Assembly: GCA_046049675.1 (NCBI GenBank)
Contig: JBJORA010000090.1
Location: forward strand, 16,114 to 80,113
Reading direction: 5' to 3'
Source of the DNA: Bacteroidota bacterium
Lineage (GTDB): Bacteria; Bacteroidota; Bacteroidia; Chitinophagales; Chitinophagaceae
DNA length: 64,000 nucleotides
Position numbers and translations under genes: made by a program. Shown piece by piece: positions 12,168 through 58,442 of the stretch (the first letter of the stretch is position 1; every line of letters begins with the position of its first letter). The notes under the pieces were generated by a model, which was given only the letters and a program-made list of their open reading frames with translations, was not told where the DNA came from and searched no databases.

Positions 12168-12187
12168 CCTCAGTTCTTACAAATAAT

Positions 12188-12294
12188 TCTTATTCAGAAA
12201 GACCGAGGGATTTGACCCTATGACGTCTTGACAACCTCCCATTTTACATGGAAAGGTGCCAAATTCAACTCCAAGCAATTGGAGAAAAATAAGT
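12188..12294 (+). ncRNA. SAM-I (S-box) riboswitch
   Basis: P1 CUUAUUC...GAAAAAUAAG. Conserved GAGGGA, UGACCC, GCAACC-like and GGUGCCAAAUUC elements. Lies upstream of a Met-biosynthesis PLP enzyme. Confidence 0.75.
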
Positions 12295-12332
12295 TAGAAA
12301 AATAGCAAATACAGTATACTAAAATATATTGA

Positions 12333-19751: not shown

Positions 19752-22700
19752 ATGAACTCAATTGCATTCGTTGACACCGAGATTGAGCCAAAAAGCCGAA
19801 AGATTCTTGACATTGGAAGTGTCAAGGACGACGGTAGTTCTTTTCATTCAAATTCCGTTACTGACTTTATAAAGTTTCTTAGCGGCACACAGTTCATTTG
19901 CGGACACAATATATTGTATCATGACTTACAGTACATTCAGAAAGCCGTTTCAGATGCAAATGTAAATTCAGATAACGTCATTGACACTTTGTATCTCTCT
20001 CCTCTTTTGTTTCCAACAAGACCCTATCATGCTTTACTCAAGGACGACAAACTTCAAACAGAAGACTCTAATAATCCGCTTAACGATTCCATAAAAGCCA
20101 AGGATCTTTTCTTTGACGAAGTTTCTAACTTCAACCAATCAGACGAGAAACTAAAAAAGCTTTTCTATTTACTATTATACGACAAAAAGGAGTTCAACGC
20201 CTTTTTTCGTTTCATTGCATATACTTGCAGCGACACAGACACTGAAGATTTTATTCGCAAAACATTTGATTCGGTTATTTGCGAACATGCTAACCTTTCA
20301 AAAATAATTTCGGAGCACCCGATTGAATTAGCTTACTGCTTAGCTCTCATAAATTGCAATAACCGATATTCAATAACACCACCTTGGATTTTAAGAAACT
20401 ATCCCAAAGTTGAATGCTTAATGTTTTTGCTAAGAAACAATCCTTGTATCACTGGTTGTAAGTATTGCGATAAAGCATTTGATATTCACAAAGCACTAAA
20501 GGAAAATTTCGGCTATGATGCTTACAGAACTTATGCAGGAGAGCCACTTCAGGAGAACGCAGTTCAAGCAGCAGTTGACAACAAATCTCTATTAGCAGTA
20601 TTTCCTACTGGTGGTGGCAAGTCAATTACTTTTCAAGTTCCTGCATTGATGGCTGGTGAAAACTCAAAAGGTTTAACAGTGGTGATTTCTCCTTTGCAAT
20701 CGCTAATGAAAGACCAGGTTGACAATCTAGAAAAGATAGGAATCACTACTGCTGTTACAATAAACGGTTTGCTTGACCCCATTGAAAGAGCAAAATCTAT
20801 TGAAAGAGTTCAAGATGGTTCAGCATGTCTCCTTTATATTTCTCCTGAATCTTTGCGATCAAAGACCACTGAAAGAATTCTTTTAGGAAGAAAAATTGTT
20901 CGCTTTGTTATTGACGAAGCACACTGCTTTTCTTCATGGGGCCAAGATTTCAGAGTAGATTATTTATACATCGGCGATTTCATCAAATCAATTCGGGAAA
21001 GTAAAAATCTTGAAGAACAAATTCCAGTTTCATGCTTTACTGCAACTGCAAAGCAAAAAGTCATTGAAGACATTTGTGCATACTTCAAAGAAAAGTTGGG
21101 AATCAAATTGGAAATATTCCCCTCCAAAGCGACAAGAACAAACTTGCAATACAGAGTTTTTGAAAAAGGCAACGATGAAGAAAAGTATAACGCAGTTCGC
21201 GATTTAATTGAAGAGAAAAATTGCCCGACAATTATTTATGTTTCAAGAACCAAACGAGCAAGAACCCTTGCAGAAAGATTAAAGGAAGATGGATTTGATG
21301 CAAGAGCATTTCATGGCAAAATGGAAAGCCAAGAGAAAACAGCGAATCAAGATGCTTTTATTTCTGGAGCGGTTCAAATAATGGTGGCGACCTCTGCTTT
21401 TGGGATGGGCGTTGATAAGAAGGATGTTGGAATGGTCATTCACTATGAAATTTCTGACTCACTCGAAAACTATGTTCAGGAGGCAGGCAGAGCAGGGCGA
21501 GATCAAAACATAAAAGCAGACTGTTATGTTTTGTTTAACGAAGAAGACCTCGGCAAACATTTTATCTTGTTGAATCAAACTAAGATCAATATACATGAGA
21601 TCAAGCAAATTTGGAACGCACTGAAGTACCTTACAAAATTCAAATCGAGTGTTCAAAAATCTGCTTTGGAAATCGCAAGAGCGGCAGGTTGGGACGATAG
21701 CTTGCACGAGATAGAAACAAGAGTTACAACTGCAATTGCTGCATTGGAAGAAGCAGGCTATGTGAAAAGAAAACAAAACATGCCAAGAGTTTTCGCCAAT
21801 AGTATTTTATCAAAGACGGCACAAGAAGCGATTGATAAAATTATGCGTTCGCAAAAATTCAGCGAGGATCAAAAAATGGCTGCAACAAGAATTGTCAAAG
21901 CCCTCTTTTCAAGTAAAAGCAGAAAACAAACAAAATCTGATGAAGCTGAATCAAGAGTTGATTACATCTCTGATAATTTGGGCATTGATATTAAGAATGT
22001 CATAGCAGTAGTTAATCTGTTACGTGACGAAAATATTTTGGCAGATGCAAAAGATTTAACTGCATTCATCAAAAGAGGTGAGAATAAAAATCGTTCACTT
22101 GCAATTGTTCATAGCTATGGCCTAATAGAAAACTTCCTTTGTCCATTGTTTGGCGAACAAGAAAAATCATTCCATATTAAGCAGCTAAACGAACAAGCAG
22201 AAGCCGCTGGATGTAGAGATGTTTCACCAACAAAAATAAAAACGATCATCAATTTTTGGGCGATTAAGAATTGGATAAAGCGACACAACAAAGATTATTC
22301 GAAGAATCAAATTGTTGCAATTAGTTGCCAACCAATAGAAGAACTAAGAAAAAGATTAGAGAAGCGACACATTTTAGCGGAGTTTGTTGTTAACTATTTA
22401 TATAAAAAGAGCAATATAATTCTTGAAGAAGTCGAAGCAGAAAAAGATGAAGTATTAGTAGAATTTTCCGTTCTAGAATTACAAGCGGCATTTGAAAAGC
22501 AACCCCAAGAGTTGTTTGCTTTTAAGGCAAGCATGGAAGACATTGAAGATACCTTGTTTTATCTATCACGAATAGAAGCAATAGGGATTGAAGGCGGCTT
22601 CCTTGTTGTGTACAATAAACTTTCAATTGATAGAATTGAACAGAATAATAGGGTTCAATATAAAGACCAGGATTATCAAGCGCTAAAACAGTATTACGAA

Positions 22701-24578
22701 CATAAGGTTCAGCAGATTCACATCGTTGGCGAGTATGCCAAGAAAATGATTGATGATACCACTGGAGCACTACAATTTGTTGACGACTATTTTCAATTAA
22801 ACTTTCCTTCTTTCTTAACTAAATACTTTAAAGCAAGAGAGTATGAAATAGGAAGAAACATAACGCCACAGAAACACAGGCAACTTTTTGATTCTTTATC
22901 GGAGGTTCAGCGAAACATTATTGACGACAAAGATTCAAGATACATTGTTGTTGCAGCTGGACCAGGAAGCGGCAAGACAAGAGTTCTGGTGCACAAATTA
23001 GCTTCATTGCTTTTGATGGAAGACGTTAAGCATGAGCAATTGCTGATGCTAACCTTTTCTAGAGCAGCAGCAACTGAATTCAAGAAAAGGCTGATTGAAC
23101 TAATAGGCAATGCAGCAAACTTCATCGACATAAAAACCTTTCACTCTTATTGTTTTGACCTCTTGGGCAAGGTTGGAACAATTGACACAGCAGATAGAAT
23201 TATCAAAGCCACGGTAGCGAAAATAAGAAATAACGAGGTTGAGGTGAGCAGAATTACAAAAACAGTTTTGGTGATTGATGAAGCACAGGATATGGACCAC
23301 GAGGAATTTGAGCTGATAAGCGTACTCATGGAAAAGAATGATGAAATGAGAGTAATTGCAGTAGGAGATGATGACCAAAATATTTATGAATGGAGGGGAG
23401 CCGATTCGAAATACTTGGTAAGCTTTATTATAGATAAAAAGGCAACGAAATACGAGCTCATCAAAAATTACAGAAGTAAAAGTAATTTGGTTTCATTTGC
23501 TAACCAATTTGTAAGGACAATTGATGGGCGCCTTAAAGAAATCCCGATTGAAGCACAACAAACTGACAATGGGAAAATTAAGATTGTTCATTACAAAAAT
23601 GGAAACCTCATTGCTCCCCTTATTGACGACATACTTTCAACTGACCTTTCAGGTACAACATGCATCTTGACACACAAGAACGAGGAAGCATTTCAAGTAG
23701 CAGGACTTCTGACCAAATACGGACACCAAGCTAAGTTGATTCAGAGCAACGATAGTTTTAGCTTATATAATCTGATAGAGATACGTTACTTTTTGGATGA
23801 GTTGAGATTAGACGATGATGTATTTATTATTAGCGACGATGTTTGGGAGAGCGCGAAAAGACAATTGATACACAGATACAAAGCAAGTTCAAAGTTTGAA
23901 ATTTGTTACAACCTTATTAGGGATTTTGAAAGCACAAACACCAAAAAGAAATACAAGTCGGACTTTGAAGTTTTCATCCGTGAATCAAAGTTGGAAGATT
24001 TTATAAGCACTAGTGGAGATACAATATTTGTTTCTACAATTCACAAGGCAAAAGGAAGAGAATTTGACAACGTGTTCTTATTGCTTGAAAATTTTGATGC
24101 AAGAGAAGCTGAAAAGAAGCGACAACTGTATGTGGCAATGACAAGGGCAAAGCAAAGGCTGACGATTCATTTGAATGGAAATTATCTTGACAATTTGAAG
24201 ACGGAAGAATTAGAGCGGATTGAAAATAATAGCACATTCCAAGCGCCAAGCGGTTTGGTTTTACACCTTTCGCACAAGGATTTAAAGTTGGGATACTTTG
24301 AGTATGTGCAGAAACGAGTAAATGCATTGACAAGCGGAGATTCACTTAGTATATCTGATGAAGGTTGTAAAAACGAAAAAGGCGAATTAGTATTAAAGTT
24401 CTCAAAAAGATTTCTTGAAAGATTAGTAGTTGCAAAGAAGAGGGGTTATGAGTTGAAAGATGCTAAAGTGAATTTCATTGTCTATTGGAAAAATGAGGAT
24501 AAAGGGATTGAAGTAAAAATTGCCCTTCCAGAATTGCATTTTGAACACGCAAATACAGTAAATGCGCAAGTTGACTAG
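19752..24578 (+). CDS. 1608-aa fusion protein: DnaQ-like 3'-5' exonuclease + RecQ-family helicase + UvrD/PcrA-like SF1 helicase
   Basis: Exo motifs FVDTE...GHNILYHD. RecQ Walker A PTGGGKS, DEAH VIDEAHCFSSWGQDFR, and ATSAFGMGVDKKDVGMVIHYEISDSLENYVQEAGRAGRD. UvrD Walker A AAGPGSGKT, DEAQD, GDDDQNIYEWRGA, VAMTRAK. Confidence 0.8.
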   Translation: MNSIAFVDTEIEPKSRKILDIGSVKDDGSSFHSNSVTDFIKFLSGTQFICGHNILYHDLQYIQKAVSDANVNSDNVIDTLYLSPLLFPTRPYHALLKDDKLQTEDSNNPLNDSIKAKDLFFDEVSNFNQSDEKLKKLFYLLLYDKKEFNAFFRFIAYTCSDTDTEDFIRKTFDSVICEHANLSKIISEHPIELAYCLALINCNNRYSITPPWILRNYPKVECLMFLLRNNPCITGCKYCDKAFDIHKALKENFGYDAYRTYAGEPLQENAVQAAVDNKSLLAVFPTGGGKSITFQVPALMAGENSKGLTVVISPLQSLMKDQVDNLEKIGITTAVTINGLLDPIERAKSIERVQDGSACLLYISPESLRSKTTERILLGRKIVRFVIDEAHCFSSWGQDFRVDYLYIGDFIKSIRESKNLEEQIPVSCFTATAKQKVIEDICAYFKEKLGIKLEIFPSKATRTNLQYRVFEKGNDEEKYNAVRDLIEEKNCPTIIYVSRTKRARTLAERLKEDGFDARAFHGKMESQEKTANQDAFISGAVQIMVATSAFGMGVDKKDVGMVIHYEISDSLENYVQEAGRAGRDQNIKADCYVLFNEEDLGKHFILLNQTKINIHEIKQIWNALKYLTKFKSSVQKSALEIARAAGWDDSLHEIETRVTTAIAALEEAGYVKRKQNMPRVFANSILSKTAQEAIDKIMRSQKFSEDQKMAATRIVKALFSSKSRKQTKSDEAESRVDYISDNLGIDIKNVIAVVNLLRDENILADAKDLTAFIKRGENKNRSLAIVHSYGLIENFLCPLFGEQEKSFHIKQLNEQAEAAGCRDVSPTKIKTIINFWAIKNWIKRHNKDYSKNQIVAISCQPIEELRKRLEKRHILAEFVVNYLYKKSNIILEEVEAEKDEVLVEFSVLELQAAFEKQPQELFAFKASMEDIEDTLFYLSRIEAIGIEGGFLVVYNKLSIDRIEQNNRVQYKDQDYQALKQYYEHKVQQIHIVGEYAKKMIDDTTGALQFVDDYFQLNFPSFLTKYFKAREYEIGRNITPQKHRQLFDSLSEVQRNIIDDKDSRYIVVAAGPGSGKTRVLVHKLASLLLMEDVKHEQLLMLTFSRAAATEFKKRLIELIGNAANFIDIKTFHSYCFDLLGKVGTIDTADRIIKATVAKIRNNEVEVSRITKTVLVIDEAQDMDHEEFELISVLMEKNDEMRVIAVGDDDQNIYEWRGADSKYLVSFIIDKKATKYELIKNYRSKSNLVSFANQFVRTIDGRLKEIPIEAQQTDNGKIKIVHYKNGNLIAPLIDDILSTDLSGTTCILTHKNEEAFQVAGLLTKYGHQAKLIQSNDSFSLYNLIEIRYFLDELRLDDDVFIISDDVWESAKRQLIHRYKASSKFEICYNLIRDFESTNTKKKYKSDFEVFIRESKLEDFISTSGDTIFVSTIHKAKGREFDNVFLLLENFDAREAEKKRQLYVAMTRAKQRLTIHLNGNYLDNLKTEELERIENNSTFQAPSGLVLHLSHKDLKLGYFEYVQKRVNALTSGDSLSISDEGCKNEKGELVLKFSKRFLERLVVAKKRGYELKDAKVNFIVYWKNEDKGIEVKIALPELHFEHANTVNAQVD

Positions 24579-26910: not shown

Positions 26911-28002
26911 ATGGCAACAAAATTAGAAATAGCAAAATCGTTACTCTCGCCTCCCGGCGATACTATTCAGGAGCATATTGATTTTATTGGAATGAGCCAA
27001 GCTGAACTTGCAGAAAGAATGGGCAGACCAAAGGAAAAAATCAATGATGTAATTAAAGGAAGAGAACCAATTTCTACTGCAACAGCTTTTCAATTGGAAA
27101 AAGTTTTAGGTATCTCTGCAAGTTTTTGGTTGAATAGAGAGAAGACATACCGTAAAGAGCTCTATGAATTACAACAACAGGAAGAACTAGAAAGGCAAAA
27201 AGGATGGTTGTGTGCATTTCCAATAAATGAGATGCGAAAATATGCATGGATACCTGATACAAAAGAGAAGCATACTTCGGTGGACAATTTATTAAAATTC
27301 TTTAGTGTAGCATCAACTGAAGAATGGGAAAGGATTTATGTGGATGAAGAAGTTTCTGTTGCATTCAAAATCTCACTGGCTCACACCAAAAGCCCTCATG
27401 CTATTTCAGCATGGTTGCGTAAGGGTGAGATACAAGCTAAGGAAATAGACGTTGCGGAATTTGATAAAAAGAAATTCAAAGAAGCTATGGCAGAAATCAA
27501 AGAAGTGGCCTTTTTGATGCCTGACAATTACACAAAACAATTACGCAATATCTGCGCCAAATGTGGCGTCGCGGTTGTATTAACTCAAAACTTGCCAAAA
27601 GCACCAATAAGTGGAGCAACACGTTGGTTTCATAACAAACCAATCATTCAATTATCTGGTCGCTTTAGGACCAATGACCATTTTTGGTTTACTTTTTTCC
27701 ATGAAGCGGCACATATCATTTTGCACGGCAAAAAAGACATCTTTTTGGAAAATGTAGAAGGCACAGAAACAGACCAAGAAAAAGAGGAAGAAGCTAATGC
27801 ATTTGCTGCTAAAATATTGCTGACTGAAAATGAACTACAACAGATTATTGATGCAGCTCCATTGACCGAAAAAATGATTTATGAGTTTGCAAATAAATTC
27901 AGAACACCACCAGGTGTAATTATAGGCAGATTACAACATTTAAAACTCATTCCATTTCATATCGGCAATAGTTTCAGGCGAAAAATTGATTTATTTAGCT
28001 AA
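26911..28002 (+). CDS. XRE-family HTH antitoxin fused to an ImmA/IrrE-type (COG2856) HExxH metallopeptidase domain
   Basis: N-terminal HTH (GMSQAELAERMGRPKEKINDVIKG). C-terminal HEAAHIILH. Immediately downstream of higB. Confidence 0.65.
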   Translation: MATKLEIAKSLLSPPGDTIQEHIDFIGMSQAELAERMGRPKEKINDVIKGREPISTATAFQLEKVLGISASFWLNREKTYRKELYELQQQEELERQKGWLCAFPINEMRKYAWIPDTKEKHTSVDNLLKFFSVASTEEWERIYVDEEVSVAFKISLAHTKSPHAISAWLRKGEIQAKEIDVAEFDKKKFKEAMAEIKEVAFLMPDNYTKQLRNICAKCGVAVVLTQNLPKAPISGATRWFHNKPIIQLSGRFRTNDHFWFTFFHEAAHIILHGKKDIFLENVEGTETDQEKEEEANAFAAKILLTENELQQIIDAAPLTEKMIYEFANKFRTPPGVIIGRLQHLKLIPFHIGNSFRRKIDLFS

Positions 28003-29130: not shown

Positions 29131-30144
29131 TTAAATGGCATACCACCCACCCATCTCACCAATCCTCTTCGCAATTTTCTTCTTCAATAGCCTCGGTGCA
29201 AGAACTTTCAGTTGTTCGCCAAAGCCGAGCAGCTCGCGTTCTAGCTCAAAGTTATGGACCACGCATATCTTAAAGATCGTGCCGTCTTCGTCTTGCTTGA
29301 GTACTTCTTGGCTAGGGTGTAGTGGTTTGGTTAGCACGTAGGGCGCGTCGCTTTTTCGTATCCAGAATACAATATTTTGTGCGCGGTCTTTTTCTGTTTT
29401 GGTTACCCCAATGGTATCGGCATAGTATTCGTCAAAGGGTTTGCCTTTGTAGGGCACAAACTTTTCTTTTTCGTTTATGGTAAAAGACTCAATGCGGTCT
29501 AGGGCAAGTGTAATGAGTATATCGCCTTTCTTTGGCTTGCAAATTAAGAACCAACGGTTACGATATTCTTTGAGCAGGTAGGGAAAGTATATGCCTTCTG
29601 TACCTTGTTTTGCCTTGAAGGATTTGTACACAATGTTTAGCGTGGTACGATTGGCAATGGCCTGGTACAAGGGATTGATAAAATCTAAACCTTTTAGCAG
29701 TGGGTTGCTTTCAAATTGTACATAGTTGTGTTTAGCGCCTGCAGTTTGTTCTATACTATTTTCAAGCTTGGTAATCATTTCACTCATTTCGGTGAAGTGG
29801 GCAAAACCGCTAAACTGTTTAAGCACTTGCACGATGCCTTTTAGTTTACCAAGATCGCCTTCGTTGAGCTGCGACTTAAAAATGCTATAGTCTTTGTCGT
29901 CGTAAGTATAGTAGCGTTTGTTTACAACAACGATGGGCGCATTATAGCCAAGGGTATCGCTGCGCATCACTTGTATATCTTGCTGTATGGTGCGTTTGGC
30001 AATACCGGTATGTTTGCCTTCAAAGTCGTAGAGCGCATCTGCTACGGCATCTATTAGGTCTTCTAGTGTCCATTTGCGCAATCTATTTTGCAGACACTTA
30101 TCTATGGTTTTATAGCGCAGTAATGCTTGTTTGTTTGTAGCCAT
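29131..30144 (-). CDS. WYL-domain transcriptional regulator (HTH + WYL; BrxR/CapW-like architecture)
   Basis: 337 aa. N-terminal wHTH. Central WYL-like region (LLKEYRNRWFLIC...). This family typically flanks defense systems. Confidence 0.6.
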   Translation of the reverse strand: MATNKQALLRYKTIDKCLQNRLRKWTLEDLIDAVADALYDFEGKHTGIAKRTIQQDIQVMRSDTLGYNAPIVVVNKRYYTYDDKDYSIFKSQLNEGDLGKLKGIVQVLKQFSGFAHFTEMSEMITKLENSIEQTAGAKHNYVQFESNPLLKGLDFINPLYQAIANRTTLNIVYKSFKAKQGTEGIYFPYLLKEYRNRWFLICKPKKGDILITLALDRIESFTINEKEKFVPYKGKPFDEYYADTIGVTKTEKDRAQNIVFWIRKSDAPYVLTKPLHPSQEVLKQDEDGTIFKICVVHNFELERELLGFGEQLKVLAPRLLKKKIAKRIGEMGGWYAI

Positions 30145-44157: not shown

Positions 44158-44178
44158 AAATGCGGCAGCTAAGAGCGA

Positions 44179-44240
44179 TTTGCCAGAACTAACCGACAAA
44201 TGCGCGTTCTCCAATACTTCAGAACTACCTTTGCAAAGCC
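44179..44240 (+). repeat. R1 intergenic repeat copy 1 (TTGCCaaa..GCTGGCtAACC..CTTCAcAGCTAcCTTTGnaAaGCC)
   Basis: Aligns with the copies at 44987, 45995/46148, 48340, 54599 and 55568. Confidence 0.55.
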
Positions 44241-44278
44241 GGCAAACCTAGAGTGTAACTTCCGAAAACCTCAATACA

Positions 44279-44968
44279 ATGAAAATACTTCTAATATTGC
44301 TTTGCACGTTTACAACTATTCAAAATTGTTTTTGTCAGAAACTTGAAGGAGAGTTTACGAATAGCCGGGATTTATCAATTTACCTTAGGCAAGAATATGT
44401 TGTTTTACATCACAACCCAGAGGTTTGTTGCAATCCAGCAACATGGGATACCGGAACCTACAGAATAGTAAATGATACGTTGAAACTGGCTTTTGGCGAA
44501 ATCAAAAGCAGTATTAGATATAATTTGACCTTCAATAGAAATGGATTTCATACGCGCAATAGAATAAATAAATTAGTTAGAATTAATTTTAAAATGCCAG
44601 ACAGTTATTATGGCAAAGAAAAATATCAATATGACAGTTTAAATTTTGACAAAAGCAACCTCTTTTTTTACGACATAAAGGGACGTAAAGTAGATAGTCT
44701 AACCATTAATCCCTGGTATAACTCAGAAGCATATGAAATAATTGTTCCTAAATCAACAAATAGAATTAGGGTCAACTTTGGGAAAGGAATTAAAAACGAA
44801 TATGTTTTACCAAAAGGCTTTAATGAATTTAATATTACAGTTAATTTAAATCGAACAGGCACATACGGCAGACAGCGCTATACTAGGGAATTCGCGATAG
44901 TGCAAACGAATGACACGCTATCAATGAAAGACATTTATGGTTTGCAAGGATACGCAAAAATTAAATGA
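44279..44968 (+). CDS. secreted hypothetical protein (cassette gene)
   Basis: Signal peptide. Confidence 0.45.
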   Translation: MKILLILLCTFTTIQNCFCQKLEGEFTNSRDLSIYLRQEYVVLHHNPEVCCNPATWDTGTYRIVNDTLKLAFGEIKSSIRYNLTFNRNGFHTRNRINKLVRINFKMPDSYYGKEKYQYDSLNFDKSNLFFYDIKGRKVDSLTINPWYNSEAYEIIVPKSTNRIRVNFGKGIKNEYVLPKGFNEFNITVNLNRTGTYGRQRYTREFAIVQTNDTLSMKDIYGLQGYAKIK

Positions 44969-44986
44969 GCTGGGCCTGCACACAAC

Positions 44987-45050
44987 TTGCCTAAAGTGGC
45001 TGGCTAACCCAAAATATCCAACGCTTCACAGCTATCTTTGTAAGGTCGCC
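44987..45050 (+). repeat. R1 intergenic repeat copy 2
   Basis: TTGCCTAAAGTGGCTGGCTAACCC...GCTTCACAGCTATCTTTGTAAGG. Confidence 0.6.
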
Positions 45051-45072
45051 AACCACTAGGCGCAATTCACGA

Positions 45073-45972
45073 ATGCTAAACATGACAAGGGCACTAATTT
45101 TTGCATTAATTTTATTGAACATTTCATGTGATGATAGCACGAAAAGCAGCCTCAAACAAGAATATCAAAAACAAAAAATGATAAAGAATAAGGAGAACAT
45201 ACTGAAAGAATTAGATAGCGTCTTCAAAGAAATAAGTGACACGTATGGAGGAAAAGAAAGTCACTCGAACATAAAGTATAATTTCTTCTTAGACTTAGAA
45301 CATGGTTATGTAGAAACAGCGGGAAGTAAAATTCACCTTTTTGGTGATGAGAAAAATTGGGCCATCGTCTTTGAAAAAATTGGGTATCACAATAGAGCAT
45401 TTCAAATACAATCAGAACTGAACTTTATTGGGAATTGTATAAACTATAAAAAAGAAAACCATGGCTATGGCGATGAATATACTAACACAGAAGATATTGC
45501 TTTAATTGATAACGAAGAATTAGAGAAAATCCAATTACCTGAAAACGAAGAAGAAGATTGCTTTGAAATGATTGATCCAACTATAGATAAGGTGAAAATT
45601 AGAAATTCAATAATTAGCATAAAAATAGAACAAGACGAATTTGCAAAGCTTCATATGAACTTAGTAGACGAAAATAATCCGAAAGGCTACATTAGTTTTG
45701 GCAATTTCGCAAGGTACTTATATGCCAAGCAACCGAATGAACTCAGTGCGAATCAAAGCGAAATAAGAAAGCAATTACCGAATAACATTCCATTTATAAT
45801 GACAATTGACAAATTCCACTACAAATCAAGCTACGAACCCAAAAACAAACCAAGCACCCAAGAAACCTATAACTTAATTGCAGACGTTTTAGTTTCGCTA
45901 AATAAGGAACTGTGGAAGCCAAAAGAAATAGTAAATAATGATTGGTACAATTGGGAATCAGGACATTTATAG
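45073..45972 (+). CDS. lipoprotein, hypothetical (cassette gene)
   Basis: Lipobox LLNISC. Confidence 0.45.
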   Translation: MLNMTRALIFALILLNISCDDSTKSSLKQEYQKQKMIKNKENILKELDSVFKEISDTYGGKESHSNIKYNFFLDLEHGYVETAGSKIHLFGDEKNWAIVFEKIGYHNRAFQIQSELNFIGNCINYKKENHGYGDEYTNTEDIALIDNEELEKIQLPENEEEDCFEMIDPTIDKVKIRNSIISIKIEQDEFAKLHMNLVDENNPKGYISFGNFARYLYAKQPNELSANQSEIRKQLPNNIPFIMTIDKFHYKSSYEPKNKPSTQETYNLIADVLVSLNKELWKPKEIVNNDWYNWESGHL

Positions 45973-45994: not shown

Positions 45995-46168
45995 TGTGCA
46001 AAAGCAGCTGGCAAACGCCCGTTTTTTCCGCAGTGCATAGCTGCACGCATTAAGCACCAAGCGCAGTAGGCAGTCATAAAATAAAAGCAAAAAATAATTA
46101 ACGGCGCTTACCAAAAGCAGCATGCTACCACGCTCAATCTAAGGCCTCATAACTATCTTTGTAAAGCC
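45995..46168 (+). repeat. R1 repeat copy 3, split by a ~125-bp insertion carrying the hairpin GTGCA-TAGC-TGCAC
   Basis: Upstream half TTGTGCAAAAGCAGCTGGCAAACGCCC at 45995. Core CATAACTATCTTTGTAAAGCC at 46148. Confidence 0.45.
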
Positions 46169-46219
46169 ACTAGACATTGTGGGCAATTTTGGTAGAGCAT
46201 GCGCAAATGACAACACAAA

Positions 46220-47170
46220 ATGAAAAACTCGAAACTTAGAACTTTACTTATCGGACTTATTGGAGGCGTAGCTTACGCATTTGTAGCAATGCTAATCGTA
46301 ACACATTTTCACAGCAATGTTTCCGTTGCATACATATTTGTTTTGCCCATTGTTTTAGGCGCTATTCCTGTTTTGTTTTCTACAAAAGAGCAGCTGAGTG
46401 CCTATAAAACGTATCTACTCTTACCTTGGTTTATCACGTTCACCTTTTTTCTGCTAAGCTATGTATCAGGTTTTGAAGGTATGATTTGCCTTGCTATTAT
46501 CGTTGCACCATTTCTTTTACTTGGCACATTGGGCGCCTTTATATTTAGGCTTATTAAACTTAGAAGCAAGGGCCCTGGCACAAAGCTGTATGTTTCATTA
46601 CTCATACCATTGATAATACTCGGCATTGAAACCAATTTTCAAGCAAGCAACCATATTCATACGGTTTCAACAACAATTGATATTAGCGCCGACAAGTCTA
46701 AAATATGGGAAAATGTAAAGAATGTAAAAGACATTAAAGCTGACGAAATTGAAACACACTTTGTTCATTTAATTGGAGTACCTAAACCGCTGAACGGTCA
46801 ACTAGACAAAGAAGAAATTGGCGGAATACGTCATATCACCTGGGAGAAAGGAATCAAATTTGAAGAAAGAATAACAAGTTGGCAAGATGAAATAGGTTTT
46901 AGCTACGACATAGATGTTGACCCAAATTCAATTCCGCCAAAAACACTAGACGAGCACGTCATGATTGGCGGTAGATATTTTGACGTTTTGAAGGGTAGTT
47001 ACAAGATTGATCAATTGGATGACACAAAAAGCAAAGTAACGCTAACTTGTACTTACCGCGTCACAACAAACTTAAATTTGTATAGCAAGCTATGGGCAGA
47101 CTTTATACTTAACGACTTTAACGAAATGATTTTGGAAGTAATAAAGAAGAGAAGTGAAAAAGTTAATTGA
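46220..47170 (+). CDS. membrane protein with C-terminal SRPBCC (START/polyketide-cyclase-like) domain
   Basis: 4 N-terminal TM helices. C-terminal domain pattern typical of SRPBCC. Confidence 0.4.
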   Translation: MKNSKLRTLLIGLIGGVAYAFVAMLIVTHFHSNVSVAYIFVLPIVLGAIPVLFSTKEQLSAYKTYLLLPWFITFTFFLLSYVSGFEGMICLAIIVAPFLLLGTLGAFIFRLIKLRSKGPGTKLYVSLLIPLIILGIETNFQASNHIHTVSTTIDISADKSKIWENVKNVKDIKADEIETHFVHLIGVPKPLNGQLDKEEIGGIRHITWEKGIKFEERITSWQDEIGFSYDIDVDPNSIPPKTLDEHVMIGGRYFDVLKGSYKIDQLDDTKSKVTLTCTYRVTTNLNLYSKLWADFILNDFNEMILEVIKKRSEKVN

Positions 47171-47678
47171 CAAAAGCACTTGCAACAACGAGGAAACAAA
47201 GATGCACACACAAGACATCATCAGCGAATTGACCTTATCTGGAAAGCTGTCAACAGACACGATTCGAGAAATTGAAGAGAATGGAAGTTTAAGACAAGAC
47301 ATAGTGGAATACTTCAACAAAAACAGGAATAGGAAATTTTGTCTTGAATTCTTAAATGTGTTAAGTGAACTAAGGAAAAATTCTGATGTAGGACTTTCTG
47401 GAGATAGTTTAATGCTTGCTTGTTATATACTTGGAAAACATAGTCATATTGAAGACTGCTTAAAAATTTGGGAAACCAAAAGACTAGACTTTGATACATA
47501 CTGCTCTATTGACATTCAATTAGTAGCATTTGCAGGAGCGCAAGAAACTATTGAGTACTTAAAAAATCAAACTTCCGAAGAAGCTAAAGCAGCAGCGGAA
47601 TATATGATTGGTTGTTCTAAAGCAGGGGACTTCAAAGATCTAGAAACTTATTTTAATGAAACACCTTGGTTTGTATGA
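47154..47678 (+). CDS. hypothetical protein (start may be 47202)
   Basis: 174-aa ORF. Confidence 0.35.
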   Translation: MKKLIDKSTCNNEETKMHTQDIISELTLSGKLSTDTIREIEENGSLRQDIVEYFNKNRNRKFCLEFLNVLSELRKNSDVGLSGDSLMLACYILGKHSHIEDCLKIWETKRLDFDTYCSIDIQLVAFAGAQETIEYLKNQTSEEAKAAAEYMIGCSKAGDFKDLETYFNETPWFV

Positions 47679-48313
47679 CAATTCAAACAATAAATTATTT
47701 TGAACAAAACAAAAACATTCCACAACATGGACAAGTGATTCTCGGGCAACAAACAGAAGAGTTAATTGTGGTATACCAGGCCTATAATAAGCGAATTGCC
47801 GACTATGCAACGTCAAATCAAAAACTCGGAGGAACCCATTTTAGTTATAATAGAATGTCTTGGATAAAACCAAACTTTCTGTGGATGATGTACAGATGTG
47901 GTTGGGCCGAAAAAGAAAATCAAGAAAACGTAATTGCTATTTGGATAAAGAAGTCCGACTTTGAAACAATTCTTGAAAACGCAGTTTATTCGTCGTTCCA
48001 AGAGAATGTTTATCAAAATAGAGAGCAATGGCAAAGTCAACTAGCGCAGCAAGAAGTAAGGATTCAATGGGATCCCGATCACGACCCGTACGGCAATAAA
48101 CTTGAAAGAAGAGCAATCCAATTAGGACTGAAGGGCAAAATTCTGAAAGCATTTGGAGAAGAGATGATATACAAAATTGAAAACATTACAGACTTCGTCA
48201 AAACTCAAAAGCAGTTTGTAGACAAAAATGAAATTGAAAAACTAATTGTACCCACAGAAACAATCTTCAAGACAAGCAAGCCGTTGCTGAATGAAAAAAT
48301 TGGAATAAGTTGA
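47666..48313 (+). CDS. DUF4291 family protein
   Basis: LIVVYQAY...RMSWIKPNFLWMMYRCGW matches the DUF4291 signature from recall. Confidence 0.5.
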   Translation: MVCMTIQTINYFEQNKNIPQHGQVILGQQTEELIVVYQAYNKRIADYATSNQKLGGTHFSYNRMSWIKPNFLWMMYRCGWAEKENQENVIAIWIKKSDFETILENAVYSSFQENVYQNREQWQSQLAQQEVRIQWDPDHDPYGNKLERRAIQLGLKGKILKAFGEEMIYKIENITDFVKTQKQFVDKNEIEKLIVPTETIFKTSKPLLNEKIGIS

Positions 48314-48339
48314 TGAACAGCGGTTAGCAGCGTTGTCTA

Positions 48340-48396
48340 AAAATTGCGAGGCAAATTCAAATTTTCTGTGGCGTCACAGCTACCTTTGCCAAGGCC
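48340..48396 (+). repeat. R1 repeat copy 4
   Basis: GCGTCACAGCTACCTTTGCCAAGGCC. Confidence 0.55.
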
Positions 48397-48434
48397 CTAA
48401 TAGTCATATACTAGCACGAAACAACCACCTGAAA

Positions 48435-49172
48435 ATGAAATACACAAAAGACGACATATTGCAAATGCTTATTGCAGAATACAAATATTGCATTGCATTT
48501 GACCTTGGTGTACTTAAAGACAAAGACATCAATTACGAAAGTTCAATACTTGAATGGCTAGATACATTTGATTTAGTTGACACAATACGTTTGGCAAAAA
48601 TTTACCACAGAAAATTTAACTTAAGTAGACCTCTTTCAGAATTAGAGAATCTTCTGGAAGACCAGGAGAATACTACGATATCTGATTTTTGTGAATACAT
48701 TGCAGCAAATGCCGAAAGAGAAAAAATTGATCCAATTAAACTTTTGGGAAGGAATTGCACAAGTGCCGCGATATTTAGAGCACTGAAAAATAAATTAGCA
48801 GCAATTGGTATAGATACAAAAGGCTTAAAACCAAGTAGTGAAATCAATCCATTTTTTCTAAAATATGGTGGACAATTATTTAGTGAAGTTAATAGACTTG
48901 CACCAGGAACATGGACAGAATTTGATTTCAAACCAAACAAAATGTCGAGGCTAGGAAGAAATATATTGTTCCTAGGCGTTCTATTACTAATTTGTAGGTG
49001 TTGCTTTGGCAAGTTTCAATGGCAATTAACTTTACCAATAATAATTGGCATTGTACTTAGTTACATCGGCGATAAAAACCAACCAGAAAGATTAAGCATC
49101 AATGGCTTTAAGAATTTCAGACAACTTATTCTTGCAATAGAAAGAAATTTAAGTGAAGCAGGTGTATGCTAG
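48435..49172 (+). CDS. hypothetical protein (cassette gene), C-terminal TM segment
   Basis: ATG at 48435 immediately follows the R1 copy. The ORF track's 48333 start would overlap the repeat. Confidence 0.4.
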   Translation: MKYTKDDILQMLIAEYKYCIAFDLGVLKDKDINYESSILEWLDTFDLVDTIRLAKIYHRKFNLSRPLSELENLLEDQENTTISDFCEYIAANAEREKIDPIKLLGRNCTSAAIFRALKNKLAAIGIDTKGLKPSSEINPFFLKYGGQLFSEVNRLAPGTWTEFDFKPNKMSRLGRNILFLGVLLLICRCCFGKFQWQLTLPIIIGIVLSYIGDKNQPERLSINGFKNFRQLILAIERNLSEAGVC

Positions 49173-53030: not shown

Positions 53031-53128
53031 TCGCAAAGCACGGTTTTGTGCTAGAAATTATTATTTTTGAATATGATAACAAGGCCCGAAAGCAATCCGC
53101 AGATGTGTATCGTCAATCACCTAATCTT
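53031..53128 (+). repeat. R2 intergenic repeat copy C
   Basis: CATCGCAAAGCACGGTTTTGTGCTAGAAATTATTATTTTTGAATATGATAAC... Confidence 0.6.
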
Positions 53129-53180: not shown

Positions 53181-53750
53181 ATGATGAGATTATTTTTAAT
53201 AGTATTCATAAGTATAATTTTAATTTTTCCTCAAAGCATCTATGCCAAGAAAAAAAAGAAGCGAGTTTCTACATTAGAAAGTTTACGCTATGACAGCAAA
53301 ACTGACAAAACAACTTATTTAGTAGTTCCGTTTGGAAAGATTAACTTAAAGGGTAATTGGACAGAAGTAAAAGATAAAAATCCCCCCTATGGGAAACTTG
53401 TAAAAAACGCTCAAGGAGTAGAAATACTATTGGACTTATTAGATTGTAGTTTTTCCTTCAATGATACTGACAAAGTAAAGAATTATCAATTTGTTGAACG
53501 CTATTATAACTGGGAAAAAGCATACTTCGAAAAAAGTCCTGAGCTAAAAACAGAAGTAATTGAAAGAGATTCAATAAACAATTTTATGATTTACCGAATC
53601 AATGGAAAAATTAAAAATGAAGACTACGATACCTATGTCTTTGTAACTGAAAAAGACTGTAATGTAATGACTTTATTGATTAGTAATTACGTCAACATTT
53701 CTCGTGAAGAAAAGATAAGGCTCTTTAAAGAGATTTACAATACAGAATAG
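53181..53750 (+). CDS. secreted hypothetical protein
   Basis: Signal peptide. Confidence 0.45.
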   Translation: MMRLFLIVFISIILIFPQSIYAKKKKKRVSTLESLRYDSKTDKTTYLVVPFGKINLKGNWTEVKDKNPPYGKLVKNAQGVEILLDLLDCSFSFNDTDKVKNYQFVERYYNWEKAYFEKSPELKTEVIERDSINNFMIYRINGKIKNEDYDTYVFVTEKDCNVMTLLISNYVNISREEKIRLFKEIYNTE

Positions 53751-54508: not shown

Positions 54509-54598
54509 AGTGAGTAATTACTAAGAGTGACGTATTAATAAGTGCTAAGGTGAAAATCAAGCAAATATTTAGATTTATCAAAATACAGTATATAGCAG

Positions 54599-54660
54599 CT
54601 TGCCAAAAATAGCTGGCAAACCTGCAATTTCTAGATCTTCACAAGTACCTTCGACAAGCC
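54599..54660 (+). repeat. R1 repeat copy 5
   Basis: CTTGCCAAAAATAGCTGGCAAACC...CTTCACAAGTACCTTCGACAAGCC. Confidence 0.5.
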
Positions 54661-54706
54661 GCCAAACGTTAGTGGCAATTACGCGAGACCCACAAGAATA
54701 AAGACA

Positions 54707-55174
54707 ATGGAAATAAATTATATCAAAGGCGATGCTACTAATCCAATTGGAGAAGGAAATAAAATAATTGTGCATATTTGTAATGATATTGGTGGCTGGG
54801 GAAAAGGATTTGTTATGGCAATTTCTAAACGCTGGAAACAACCTGAACATCAATATAGAGAATGGTTTAAAGCAAAAGATAATTTTAGCCTTGGACAAGT
54901 TCAATTTGTGCTAGTAGAAGAAACACTTTGGGTTGCTAACTTGATTGGACAGCACAAGATTAATAAAGACGAAAATGGAAACGCACCAATTCGTTATGAA
55001 GCAATTTTTCAAGGACTTGAACAAGTAGCTCAATTTGCTTTAGAAAGAGACGCGACTATTCATATGCCAAGAATCGGTTGTGGACTTGCAGGTGGCTCGT
55101 GGGAGAATATAGAGCCTTTAATAAACTCGACATTAATGTCAAAAAACATTCAAGTAACTGTTTACGACTTTTAA
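54707..55174 (+). CDS. TARG1(C6orf130)/DarG-type macrodomain protein (ADP-ribosyl hydrolase)
   Basis: IKGDATNP...IVHICNDIGGWGKGFVMAISKRW and MPRIGCGLAGGSWENIEPLI...IQVTVYDF align block-by-block with human TARG1 (recall). Confidence 0.6.
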   Translation: MEINYIKGDATNPIGEGNKIIVHICNDIGGWGKGFVMAISKRWKQPEHQYREWFKAKDNFSLGQVQFVLVEETLWVANLIGQHKINKDENGNAPIRYEAIFQGLEQVAQFALERDATIHMPRIGCGLAGGSWENIEPLINSTLMSKNIQVTVYDF

Positions 55175-55175
55175 T

Positions 55176-55532
55176 ATGTGGACACCTATCACTTTAATAG
55201 AATTATTCGACCAAATTCAAAAAACCGAAACTGACCTAAATGGTGAATTAAGGAATTTTTGGCAACTAATTAGAATTGAGCCGAAGAAATGGTCAGAACT
55301 AACATACGGAAACGAAGGAAATGGATTTTGGGTTGTTGCAATTTGTGGTCAAAAAATAATTTGGTATAACGATATCGAAGATGGCTTTAATATTTCTAAT
55401 TATACAAATTATGGACAGATAGACGGTTATTTTTGTAATCAAGAAGAATTAAGCTGGGCAATTAGGAGATTATATGAATTAATTATATTTGGTGGACAAA
55501 TACAGGGACAAGCAGGACCTCCATCAAATTAG
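55176..55532 (+). CDS. hypothetical protein (translationally coupled to the macrodomain gene)
   Basis: Start lies 2 nt after the upstream stop. Confidence 0.4.
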   Translation: MWTPITLIELFDQIQKTETDLNGELRNFWQLIRIEPKKWSELTYGNEGNGFWVVAICGQKIIWYNDIEDGFNISNYTNYGQIDGYFCNQEELSWAIRRLYELIIFGGQIQGQAGPPSN

Positions 55533-55567
55533 AAATATAAAAAACAAACAATAGCCACCACCAACGC

Positions 55568-55626
55568 TTTGCTAAAGATAGCTAGCTAACCCGCATTATC
55601 CAGCGCTTCGCAGCTACCTTTGACAG
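55568..55626 (+). repeat. R1 repeat copy 6
   Basis: TTTGCTAAAGATAGCTAGCTAACCCGCATTATCCAGCGCTTCGCAGCTACCTTTGACAG. Confidence 0.6.
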
Positions 55627-55646
55627 TAGTCTAGCACTAGCAGTTA

Positions 55647-56156
55647 ATGAACCTTAAAATACTAAAAGAATTGAAATTTGAAATAGTTAAGACACTAATA
55701 CCACTTGTAACTATGTTCTTAATAGGTTGCTACGGCGTAAATTCCGAAACCTCACAAATTGGAAATATAAATTCAAGTTGTTTAACAAAAAATGCTTGGA
55801 AAGAAATGCAGAATGAATACGCAATAGAAAAAATTACCGATTCAACATTTCAAGAAGGGCTGAAACATGTTGAAAACCATTTTATTAAACCTGCGTATGT
55901 AATTTATTTTCAAGACGAACCAAAAGAGATTGTAGGTTTCGACGCAACTGCTATAAGAGTTGTTTACAATCCAAAAATTGCTGCTTTTGGTGTTGACGGT
56001 TTAAGCCCACAATTGAGTGACAAAGAACAAATAAGAATTAGAAATCGAGTTTTAGAAGTAATTAGAGAATATGCGTGTGAAGAGGGCAAGGAAGCAATGA
56101 CAAAAGAAATGAACGAGCCTGCTATTTTTAGTAAAGCGTATTATGAAAAAAATTGA
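55647..56156 (+). CDS. lipoprotein, hypothetical
   Basis: TM/signal then Cys (LIGCYG). Confidence 0.4.
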   Translation: MNLKILKELKFEIVKTLIPLVTMFLIGCYGVNSETSQIGNINSSCLTKNAWKEMQNEYAIEKITDSTFQEGLKHVENHFIKPAYVIYFQDEPKEIVGFDATAIRVVYNPKIAAFGVDGLSPQLSDKEQIRIRNRVLEVIREYACEEGKEAMTKEMNEPAIFSKAYYEKN

Positions 56157-58316: not shown

Positions 58317-58442
58317 AATTATTTTAGCAAAGTGTGCTTTTGTGCCAGAAATTATTACTTTTGAATATATTAGCAGCGCCTGCAGCTTCTCAGCAACAAC
58401 GCATCTTTCAACAATGGCTTAGTTCAATTAGCATCGCAACCC
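58317..58442 (+). repeat. R2 intergenic repeat copy D
   Basis: CAATTATTTTAGCAAAGTGTGCTTTTGTGCCAGAAATTATTACTTTTGAATATATTAGC... Confidence 0.6.

Follow-up and report, generated by a model that had tools for sequence, protein, structure and literature searches.

The 64,000-nucleotide (nt) stretch of a Bacteroidota genome analyzed here (contig JBJORA010000090.1; called the window below, with all coordinates counted from its first base) carries, among small and mostly unannotated genes of an accessory stretch, a tightly packed gene pair on the plus strand. The first open reading frame (ORF), at 54707-55174, starts with ATG and encodes a predicted macrodomain ADP-ribosyl hydrolase of 155 amino acids (aa), referred to as the window macrodomain. 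The second, at 55176-55532, also starts with ATG and encodes a 118-aa protein of an uncharacterized family, which we call the partner. The junction between them (55172-55178) reads TAA-T-ATG, with one spacer base between the stop codon of the macrodomain gene (55172-55174) and the ATG of the partner, and the coupling claimed in a preliminary description of the locus is real. Both proteins are identical to entries RL660_2333 and RL660_2334 from a Bacteroidota metagenome-assembled genome. A minus-strand ORF at 54578-54904, which overlaps the macrodomain gene, is without support and was disregarded.

The preliminary description regarded the first protein as a stand-alone macrodomain of the TARG1/DarG type. 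When the PDB sequences were searched with phmmer, the protein aligned over its full length with Bt_1257 of Bacteroides thetaiotaomicron (PDB 2FG1/2AFC; E of 4e-65, ~65% identity, 154 residues without a gap) and with SCO6735 of Streptomyces coelicolor (PDB 5E3B; E of 2e-56), the latter alignment being collinear except for one 2-residue and one 1-residue indel. The macro domain of CHD1L/ALC1 matched at an E of 5e-14. TARG1/OARD1 chains matched residues 87-154 only (E of 1.5e-6), a block that contains MPRIGCGLAGGSWENIEPLI...VTVYDF, so the TARG1-like blocks noticed earlier do exist; in the N-terminal half, no TARG1 similarity was detectable by phmmer. DarG macrodomain chains matched at an E of ~5e-3, and structures of ADP-ribose-1''-phosphate phosphatases matched the N terminus weakly. 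Among profile models, the NCBIfam DarG equivalog scored 39 bits against a cutoff of 250, covering profile positions 13-147 of 338, and the PADLOC DarG model scored 41 bits. The Pfam check suggested in the preliminary description had a divided outcome: the Macro model (PF01661) reached 13.2 bits, below its cutoff of 22, while the macrodomain fold was recovered through 2FG1 and 5E3B. Judged by these structure matches, which lie far beyond chance, the protein is a genuine macrodomain, and it belongs to a large family of at least 7,996 homologous clusters.

Within the ALC1-like macrodomains, SCO6735 and Bt_1257 make up a subclass that lacks both the Lys84/Asp125 dyad of TARG1 and Lys80 of DarG; this subclass instead requires Gln85 and has Val or Ile at position 25, and a Q85A substitution abolishes SCO6735 activity (PMC9411070). 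In the window macrodomain, Gln82 (in IGQH, residues 80-83) aligns with SCO6735 Gln85 and occupies the position of TARG1 Lys84 and DarG Lys80, while Ile24 (in VHICND) aligns with SCO6735 Val25 (in AHVCND). Ala128 stands at the position of TARG1 Asp125, a placement read from the common PRIGCGL block. Collinearity over the whole length, which together with an extra mobile loop is a further mark of the subclass, is evident in the alignments with Bt_1257 and SCO6735. The loops expected of a macrodomain cleft can be read as GWGKG at residues 30-34 and PRIGCGLAGG at residues 121-130. Because the PDB matches extend over the full length and the Gln and Ile residues fall at the aligned positions, without the TARG1 dyad or the DarG Lys, the protein is best placed by its sequence in the SCO6735/Bt_1257 subclass rather than with TARG1 or DarG proper. 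The earlier assignment thus holds at the level of the ALC1-like class, which also contains TARG1 and DarG, and fails in the strict sense, since Gln82 replaces the Lys, Ala128 replaces Asp125, and the C-terminal domain of DarG is missing. Its statement that no DarT-like gene adjoins the macrodomain gene agrees with our scans, in which none of the scanned neighboring ORFs matched DarT/DUF4433 in Pfam, NCBIfam or PADLOC.

The partner is acidic (isoelectric point [pI] of 4.4) and rich in aromatic residues, with a predicted alpha2-beta4/5-alpha fold. Its family comprises 162 clusters at 90% identity, almost all from Bacteroidota, and 521 representatives at 50% identity, which include a few from Proteobacteria and Leptospirales. 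Nine columns of the family alignment are at least 90% conserved, the near-invariant motif being GxGFWVVAxxGxxxIWYNDIExGFNxSxY, and the family is acidic throughout (median pI of 4.67) and rich in aromatics. The AlphaFold2 model, built from a 70-sequence alignment, is confident (predicted local distance difference test score of 89.9; predicted template modeling score of 0.84) and shows two helices, then a sheet of four to five strands, then a helix at the C terminus; neither an ADP-ribosyltransferase fold nor a nuclease fold was found in it. None of 71 family sequences matched Pfam, the partner itself had no match in NCBIfam, PADLOC or the PDB sequences, and homologues were absent from 50,697 phage records. 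The partner is a genuine conserved gene of an unannotated family, with a confident model that matches no known fold.

No toxin domain was present directly upstream of the partner in the loci examined, and no membership in a known Imm or SUKH family was found. The large ORFs that precede the partner elsewhere encode an IS110-type transposase, an F420-dehydrogenase-like protein and an AAA ATPase, none of them a toxin. This lack of toxin neighbors, together with the high conservation of the family, disfavors a classical immunity protein. Some family members are fused to ankyrin repeats (P0263) or placed after a DUF7684 domain. About 20 further representatives of 284-304 aa (P0278, P0295 and P0340 among them) are fused to a C-terminal domain of ~190 aa that has the motifs RQTTYWE, HFSGK and GWR and no match in Pfam or the PDB. 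The idea that this domain of the 290-aa fusions is itself a macrodomain was rejected, with a BLASTP E value of 1.2 and no PDB match.

The preliminary description had asked whether the gene at 55176 is a conserved partner. We addressed recurrence from both sides. The partner had 314 genome hits. In the 80 best species-representative genome loci that encode the partner, a macrodomain gene of this type lay within 4 kb in three: in Pedobacter psychrodurus (L069) it is directly upstream with the stop-N-ATG junction, and in two Flavobacterium loci (L070 and L079) the order is reversed, with the macrodomain gene ~90 nt downstream of the partner. The other partner neighbors are heterogeneous (AraC, IMPase, RibD_C, DUF4279, RDD, DUF7832 and an IS110-family transposase), those in tight linkage being housekeeping or DUF genes without a relation to it, and no other ADP-ribose genes were found near the partner in loci L001-L083. 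From the macrodomain side, 61 metagenome loci had room downstream, in a sample that consists of close homologues only and is biased toward near relatives; eight of them have the partner, each time with the stop-N-ATG junction of the window. Loci L081-L087 add further pairs with this junction. The junction is retained with varied stop codons (TAA, TGA and TAG) and at partner identities down to 46%. In neighbor-joining trees, which are rough, the clade of the window macrodomain has the partner with 10 of its 15 distinct macrodomains, and the paired partners are scattered across the partner tree. The partner is therefore a conserved companion of one macrodomain sub-clade and not of the whole macrodomain or partner family, so that the earlier expectation holds within the sub-clade and not family-wide.

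Several macrodomain genes of the window clade are preceded by an overlapping gene for an 87-aa Xre helix-turn-helix (HTH) protein. Runs of small genes, including those for DUF4265 and leucine-rich repeat proteins, follow the paired macrodomains, and in one case Imm33 lies upstream. In one locus (L097), the partner has decayed while the macrodomain and HTH genes are retained. In one lineage (L084-L085), a gene for a 508-aa reverse transcriptase (RVT_1) lies ~560 nt downstream of the pair. We take the pair, often with a gene for an Xre-type HTH protein ahead of it, to have been passed on and to have moved jointly inside a single macrodomain sub-clade.

The pair is bounded on both sides by copies of a ~100-nt intergenic repeat, which nhmmer detected six times in the window, always on the plus strand and directly upstream of genes. 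The five strong copies align with 67% mean column identity. One copy lies directly upstream of the macrodomain gene (54592-54690; E of 4e-25) and is likely the promoter or leader of the operon; it contains TACCTTCG at 54646-54653, 53 nt before the macrodomain ATG, which fits a TAnnTT(T/C)G box. The next copy (55561-55650; E of 6e-20) begins 29 nt past the partner stop codon and leads into the following gene (ATG at 55647), with TACCTTTG at 55615, 24 nt before that ATG; this copy marks the end of the two-gene unit. The others precede the gene at 44279-44968 (44170-44270; E of 1.7e-22), the DUF7003 gene at 45073-45972 (44977-45073; E of 1.6e-23) and a three-gene unit at 46220-48313 that ends in a DUF4291 gene (46098-46199; E of 2e-23), while a weak partial copy just past the DUF4291 gene (48331-48398; E of 4e-6), which ends ~37 nt short of the internal ATG at position 48435, has TACCTTTG at 48381. 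Every copy carries TA(C/T)CTT(T/C)G at a distance of 24-58 nt from the ATG that follows it, which fits the Bacteroidetes -7 promoter consensus TAnnTTTG.

The description of the region as a cassette array, understood as an integron, did not survive these observations. RNAalifold gave no consensus hairpin for the five strong copies (-0.34 kcal/mol), and single copies folded as single-stranded DNA gave z scores between -0.05 and -2.5 on both strands. Integron-type R''/R' cores are absent from the repeat, GTTRRRY is not conserved across its copies, and no IntI, XerD-like or other tyrosine recombinase was found among the scanned ORFs of the window. An integron/attC interpretation was rejected on the missing hairpin and recombinase; since the box has a fixed position and there are no consensus structure, cores or recombinase, we read the repeat as a shared promoter or leader. 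It had no significant nhmmer match in 83 other loci and may represent a shared regulon or a mobile repeat that carries a promoter. The region is better described as an accessory stretch in which several of the small genes have a promoter-bearing repeat in common than as a cassette array. A second repeat of 54 nt is present at 53033-53086 and 58327-58380, on the plus strand and 5.3 kb apart, with 80% identity. Its copies contain TTTG and TAnnTTTG-like boxes, lie upstream of the genes at 53181 and 58525 and bracket the block that holds the two-gene unit.

The macrodomain tree separates two classes of genomic context. The first is a large clade located in islands of NAD/ADP-ribose genes, and the second is the clade that contains the window macrodomain. 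Within 3 kb of close homologues of the window macrodomain, Pfam-confirmed neighbors in 69 metagenome loci were KptA/Tpt1 (26 loci), NADAR (21), NamPT (19), a metallophosphatase (15), ARH (12) and DUF4291 (5). A recurrent order in many Bacteroidota (among L089-L157, e.g., L115, L123, L129 and L131) is NADAR, macrodomain, KptA/Tpt1, ARH, metallophosphatase and NamPT; the macrodomain gene typically lies 12-18 nt upstream of KptA, and DUF4291 is sometimes included. SCO6735-like macrodomains also occur in many phages (1,388 records), with ~50% identity in Streptomyces phages.

Elsewhere in the window, the only other ADP-ribose-related gene found is the one for the 215-aa DUF4291 protein (47666-48313, plus strand; Pfam PF14124, E of 1.3e-67), 6.4 kb upstream of the macrodomain gene. 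For the DUF4291 family, an atypical ADP-ribosyltransferase activity has been predicted and co-occurrence with Macro domains reported (PMC12522546). A link between the two genes in the window is only suggestive, and a minus-strand gene lies between them. The DUF4291 gene is the last of an overlapping plus-strand unit (46220-48313), after genes for a 316-aa membrane protein and a 174-aa protein without a match, and its product has the QAY and WIK motifs described for the predicted transferase. When representative sequences of the metagenome loci were used as tblastn queries, the window gave no match for KptA, NADAR, ARH or NamPT.

Farther upstream, a complete-looking RNA-repair operon (31454-38121, plus strand) encodes an SPFH/Band7 protein, a T4-type RNA ligase (Rnl), a Hen1 methyltransferase, a PNKP ligase domain, a PNKP kinase-phosphatase and an RlaP nucleotidyltransferase. 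It is preceded by a divergent WYL/WCX regulator gene (29131-30144, minus strand) and an IrrE-like HTH-peptidase gene (26911-28002, plus strand). A Gp49 (HigB-like) toxin and HTH_3 antitoxin pair occupies 38298-38994 (plus strand), and a 1,608-aa protein (19752-24578, plus strand) joins a DEAD/Helicase_C module to a UvrD-type helicase in an unusual double-helicase architecture, close to the repair and regulator genes. The RNA-repair operon, the WYL regulator, the HigB/HigA-like pair and the helicase fusion give the wider region a flavor of conflict and repair. An S-adenosylmethionine (SAM) riboswitch at 12187-12295 (plus strand; 77.9 bits) stands ahead of genes for a Cys/Met pyridoxal phosphate enzyme and homoserine dehydrogenase, and an Rfam scan of the whole window gave nothing else. 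The window showed no phage genes.

We favor a model in which the window macrodomain is an active hydrolase of the SCO6735 type that serves as a stand-alone, protective eraser of ADP-ribose and is coexpressed with an accessory partner, and we assign it a probability of roughly 0.55. SCO6735 removes the thymidine-ADP-ribose made by DarT, faster than DarG or TARG1 does, and rescues E. coli and S. coelicolor from DarT (PMC9411070, PMC11833690). It is also active on Glu-linked protein ADP-ribose, inhibits DarT through binding, and has been proposed to act as a shield against DarT-like exotoxins (PMC9411070, PMC11833690). These activities make a protective role plausible for the window macrodomain as well, and immunity against ADP-ribosylating toxins, as put forward in the preliminary description, can be kept as a plausible function. 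Its second suggestion, an anti-defense factor, is unsupported for the pair, since no homologue of the partner turned up in phages and the locus is free of phage genes.

In this model, ADP-ribose would be held in the cleft between the GWGKG and GCGLAGG loops, where Gln82, with Ile24, would stand in for the catalytic Lys of TARG1 and DarG. By analogy with SCO6735, the enzyme would release ADP-ribose from the thymidine of single-stranded DNA and probably also from proteins modified on Glu or Asp. With no cognate transferase adjoining, it would most likely serve as a stand-alone repair or resistance enzyme, and the marks it erases would be those of ADP-ribosylating toxins, DarT-like or not, that either enter from outside or are encoded by the cell itself. 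The promoter-bearing repeat likely drives the macrodomain gene and the translationally coupled partner gene together. The partner might be a nonenzymatic accessory that binds a toxin or target and so adds another layer of protection, much as DarG does with its DarT-binding part or Tri1 with its occluding mode; this binding or neutralizing role is our favored guess, made from the acidity of the protein, its fusion partners, its context and very weak fold echoes. A bolder proposal, which we consider doubtful, would make the partner a fold-novel component of ADP-ribosylation conflict systems, forming with the macrodomain, and often an Xre regulator, a mobile two-layer module in which the macrodomain erases the mark and the partner blocks the transferase or guides the eraser; partners that occur alone, as in most genomes, would then be orphan inhibitors.

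Some observations weigh against a protective eraser. No recognizable Imm-family gene was found in the array of small genes in the window. In addition, most close homologues of the macrodomain lie in the NADAR/KptA/ARH/NamPT islands, which point away from toxin resistance and toward RNA-end repair or the metabolism of NAD and ADP-ribose. It is conceivable that the macrodomain is a housekeeping helper in such pathways and the partner an unrelated neighbor. The enzyme would then process the ADP-ribose-1''-phosphate made by KptA/Tpt1 during RNA-end healing, or reverse phosphate-end ADP-ribosylation of the Tpt1 type. Besides the frequency of these genes within 3 kb of close homologues, the reported linkage of KptA, Macro and NADAR in RNA repair (PMC9503650), the RNA-repair operon of the window (Rnl, Hen1, PNKP and RlaP) and the weak N-terminal matches to ADP-ribose-1''-phosphate phosphatases fit this explanation. 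We nevertheless consider it unlikely for this locus: the window contains none of the four island genes sought, and the clade of the window macrodomain has no such neighbors save KptA in one locus (L125), and mostly has the partner instead. SCO6735, moreover, is inactive on 5'-phosphate-linked ADP-ribose according to the Results of one study, although the Discussion of the same paper contradicts this (PMC11833690). An association without function is about equally improbable in our estimate. Here both genes would be independent accessory genes, resembling orphan immunity genes, that hitchhike in a gene-dense island, as might be expected from the 77 of 80 partner loci without the macrodomain, the heterogeneous partner neighbors, the scatter of paired partners in their tree and the persistence of the macrodomain and HTH genes where the partner has decayed. 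Chance neighborhood does not readily explain why the junction is retained despite varied stop codons and partner identities as low as 46%, why 10 of 15 macrodomains of one clade keep the partner, or why a separate, reversed arrangement exists in Flavobacterium. By our own estimate, ~0.13 co-occurrences within 8 kb would be expected in 80 loci, against the three observed; this figure assumes, without a count, about one such macrodomain per 5-Mb genome.

Two other explanations appear far less probable. A toxin-antitoxin or abortive-infection module, with the partner as toxin, the macrodomain as antidote and the Xre HTH protein of other loci as regulator, would suit the compact, translationally coupled HTH-macrodomain-partner layout, which resembles toxin-antitoxin operons. 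In Flavobacterium, the partner also directly follows a putative toxin-antitoxin pair, in which ParE was assigned by eye from the sequence; the sole precomputed ParE_toxin match falls on a gene ~370 nt downstream of the macrodomain-partner pair in L087. Yet in 77 of the 80 genome loci the partner occurs by itself, a situation that a toxin could not tolerate, its confident model has no ADP-ribosyltransferase or nuclease fold, and PADLOC gave no match; we regard this explanation as very improbable. At least as remote is an integron-type gene cassette or an anti-defense factor of a phage or mobile element, directed against DarTG-like systems. The repeats that flank the unit, the abundance of SCO6735-like macrodomains in phages and the repetitive intergenic sequences of the rAID-1 arrays of Bacteroidales would be compatible with it. 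Against it stand the lack of an IntI or XerD-like recombinase in the scanned window, repeats with a promoter box at a fixed position and neither consensus hairpin nor R''/R' cores, the absence of the repeat from the 83 other loci scanned, and the lack of phage homologues of the partner and of phage genes in the window.

If the partner proves unrelated, the locus adds one more homologue of Bt_1257. For stand-alone macrodomains of the SCO6735 type, shielding of bacteria from DNA-ADP-ribosylating toxins has been proposed, and a sub-clade that lies outside the NAD/ADP-ribose islands and keeps a well-conserved partner among immunity-like genes provides a concrete, testable pair. The partner family, with its 521 representatives, may belong to ADP-ribosylation biology.

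Among known systems, the rAID-1 (recombinase-associated acquired interbacterial defense) arrays of Bacteroidales consist of orphan immunity genes headed by a XerD-family recombinase, and their intergenic sequences are repetitive (bioRxiv 10.1101/471110). In the window, intergenic sequences of a repetitive kind are present, and no recombinase or recognizable Imm-family gene was found in our scans. FmTARG1 of Fusobacterium mortiferum is likewise a stand-alone macrodomain of the ALC1 class among immunity-like small genes, in an operon with DUF genes and an Imm51 gene (PMC6397177); in contrast to the window macrodomain, it belongs to the TARG1 type proper and has other neighbors. The two-layer immunity of Tri1/Tre1 and DarG resembles the proposed arrangement in concept only, as a combination of enzymatic reversal with a binding component. 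Tri1 is an enzyme of the ARH fold, whereas here the second layer would reside in a protein of its own, with no known fold and no known toxin.

Human TARG1/OARD1 has in common with the window macrodomain the C-terminal block MPRIGCGL...WE...TVY and differs in its Lys84/Asp125 dyad, which is replaced by Gln82/Ala128. DarG belongs to the same macrodomain class, is expected to share the same DNA chemistry and gives weak profile matches, but it is a protein of ~340 aa with a C-terminal DarT-binding domain, a catalytic Lys and a DarT gene always adjoining it, none of which is found for the window macrodomain. SCO6735 is closer, with a Gln at the catalytic position and a stand-alone gene without DarT. 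It differs in being a conserved chromosomal gene of another phylum, with a DNA-damage-inducible promoter, a permease neighbor and no coupled small partner. Bt_1257, a macrodomain from structural genomics for which no published activity was found in the literature, shares with the window macrodomain the phylum, size, loops, active-site Gln and Ile and ~65% of its residues. The enzyme thus joins a subclass that is already known, with solved structures and characterized biochemistry, and what is new is the module that it forms with an unannotated protein family, which is clade-specific and translationally coupled.

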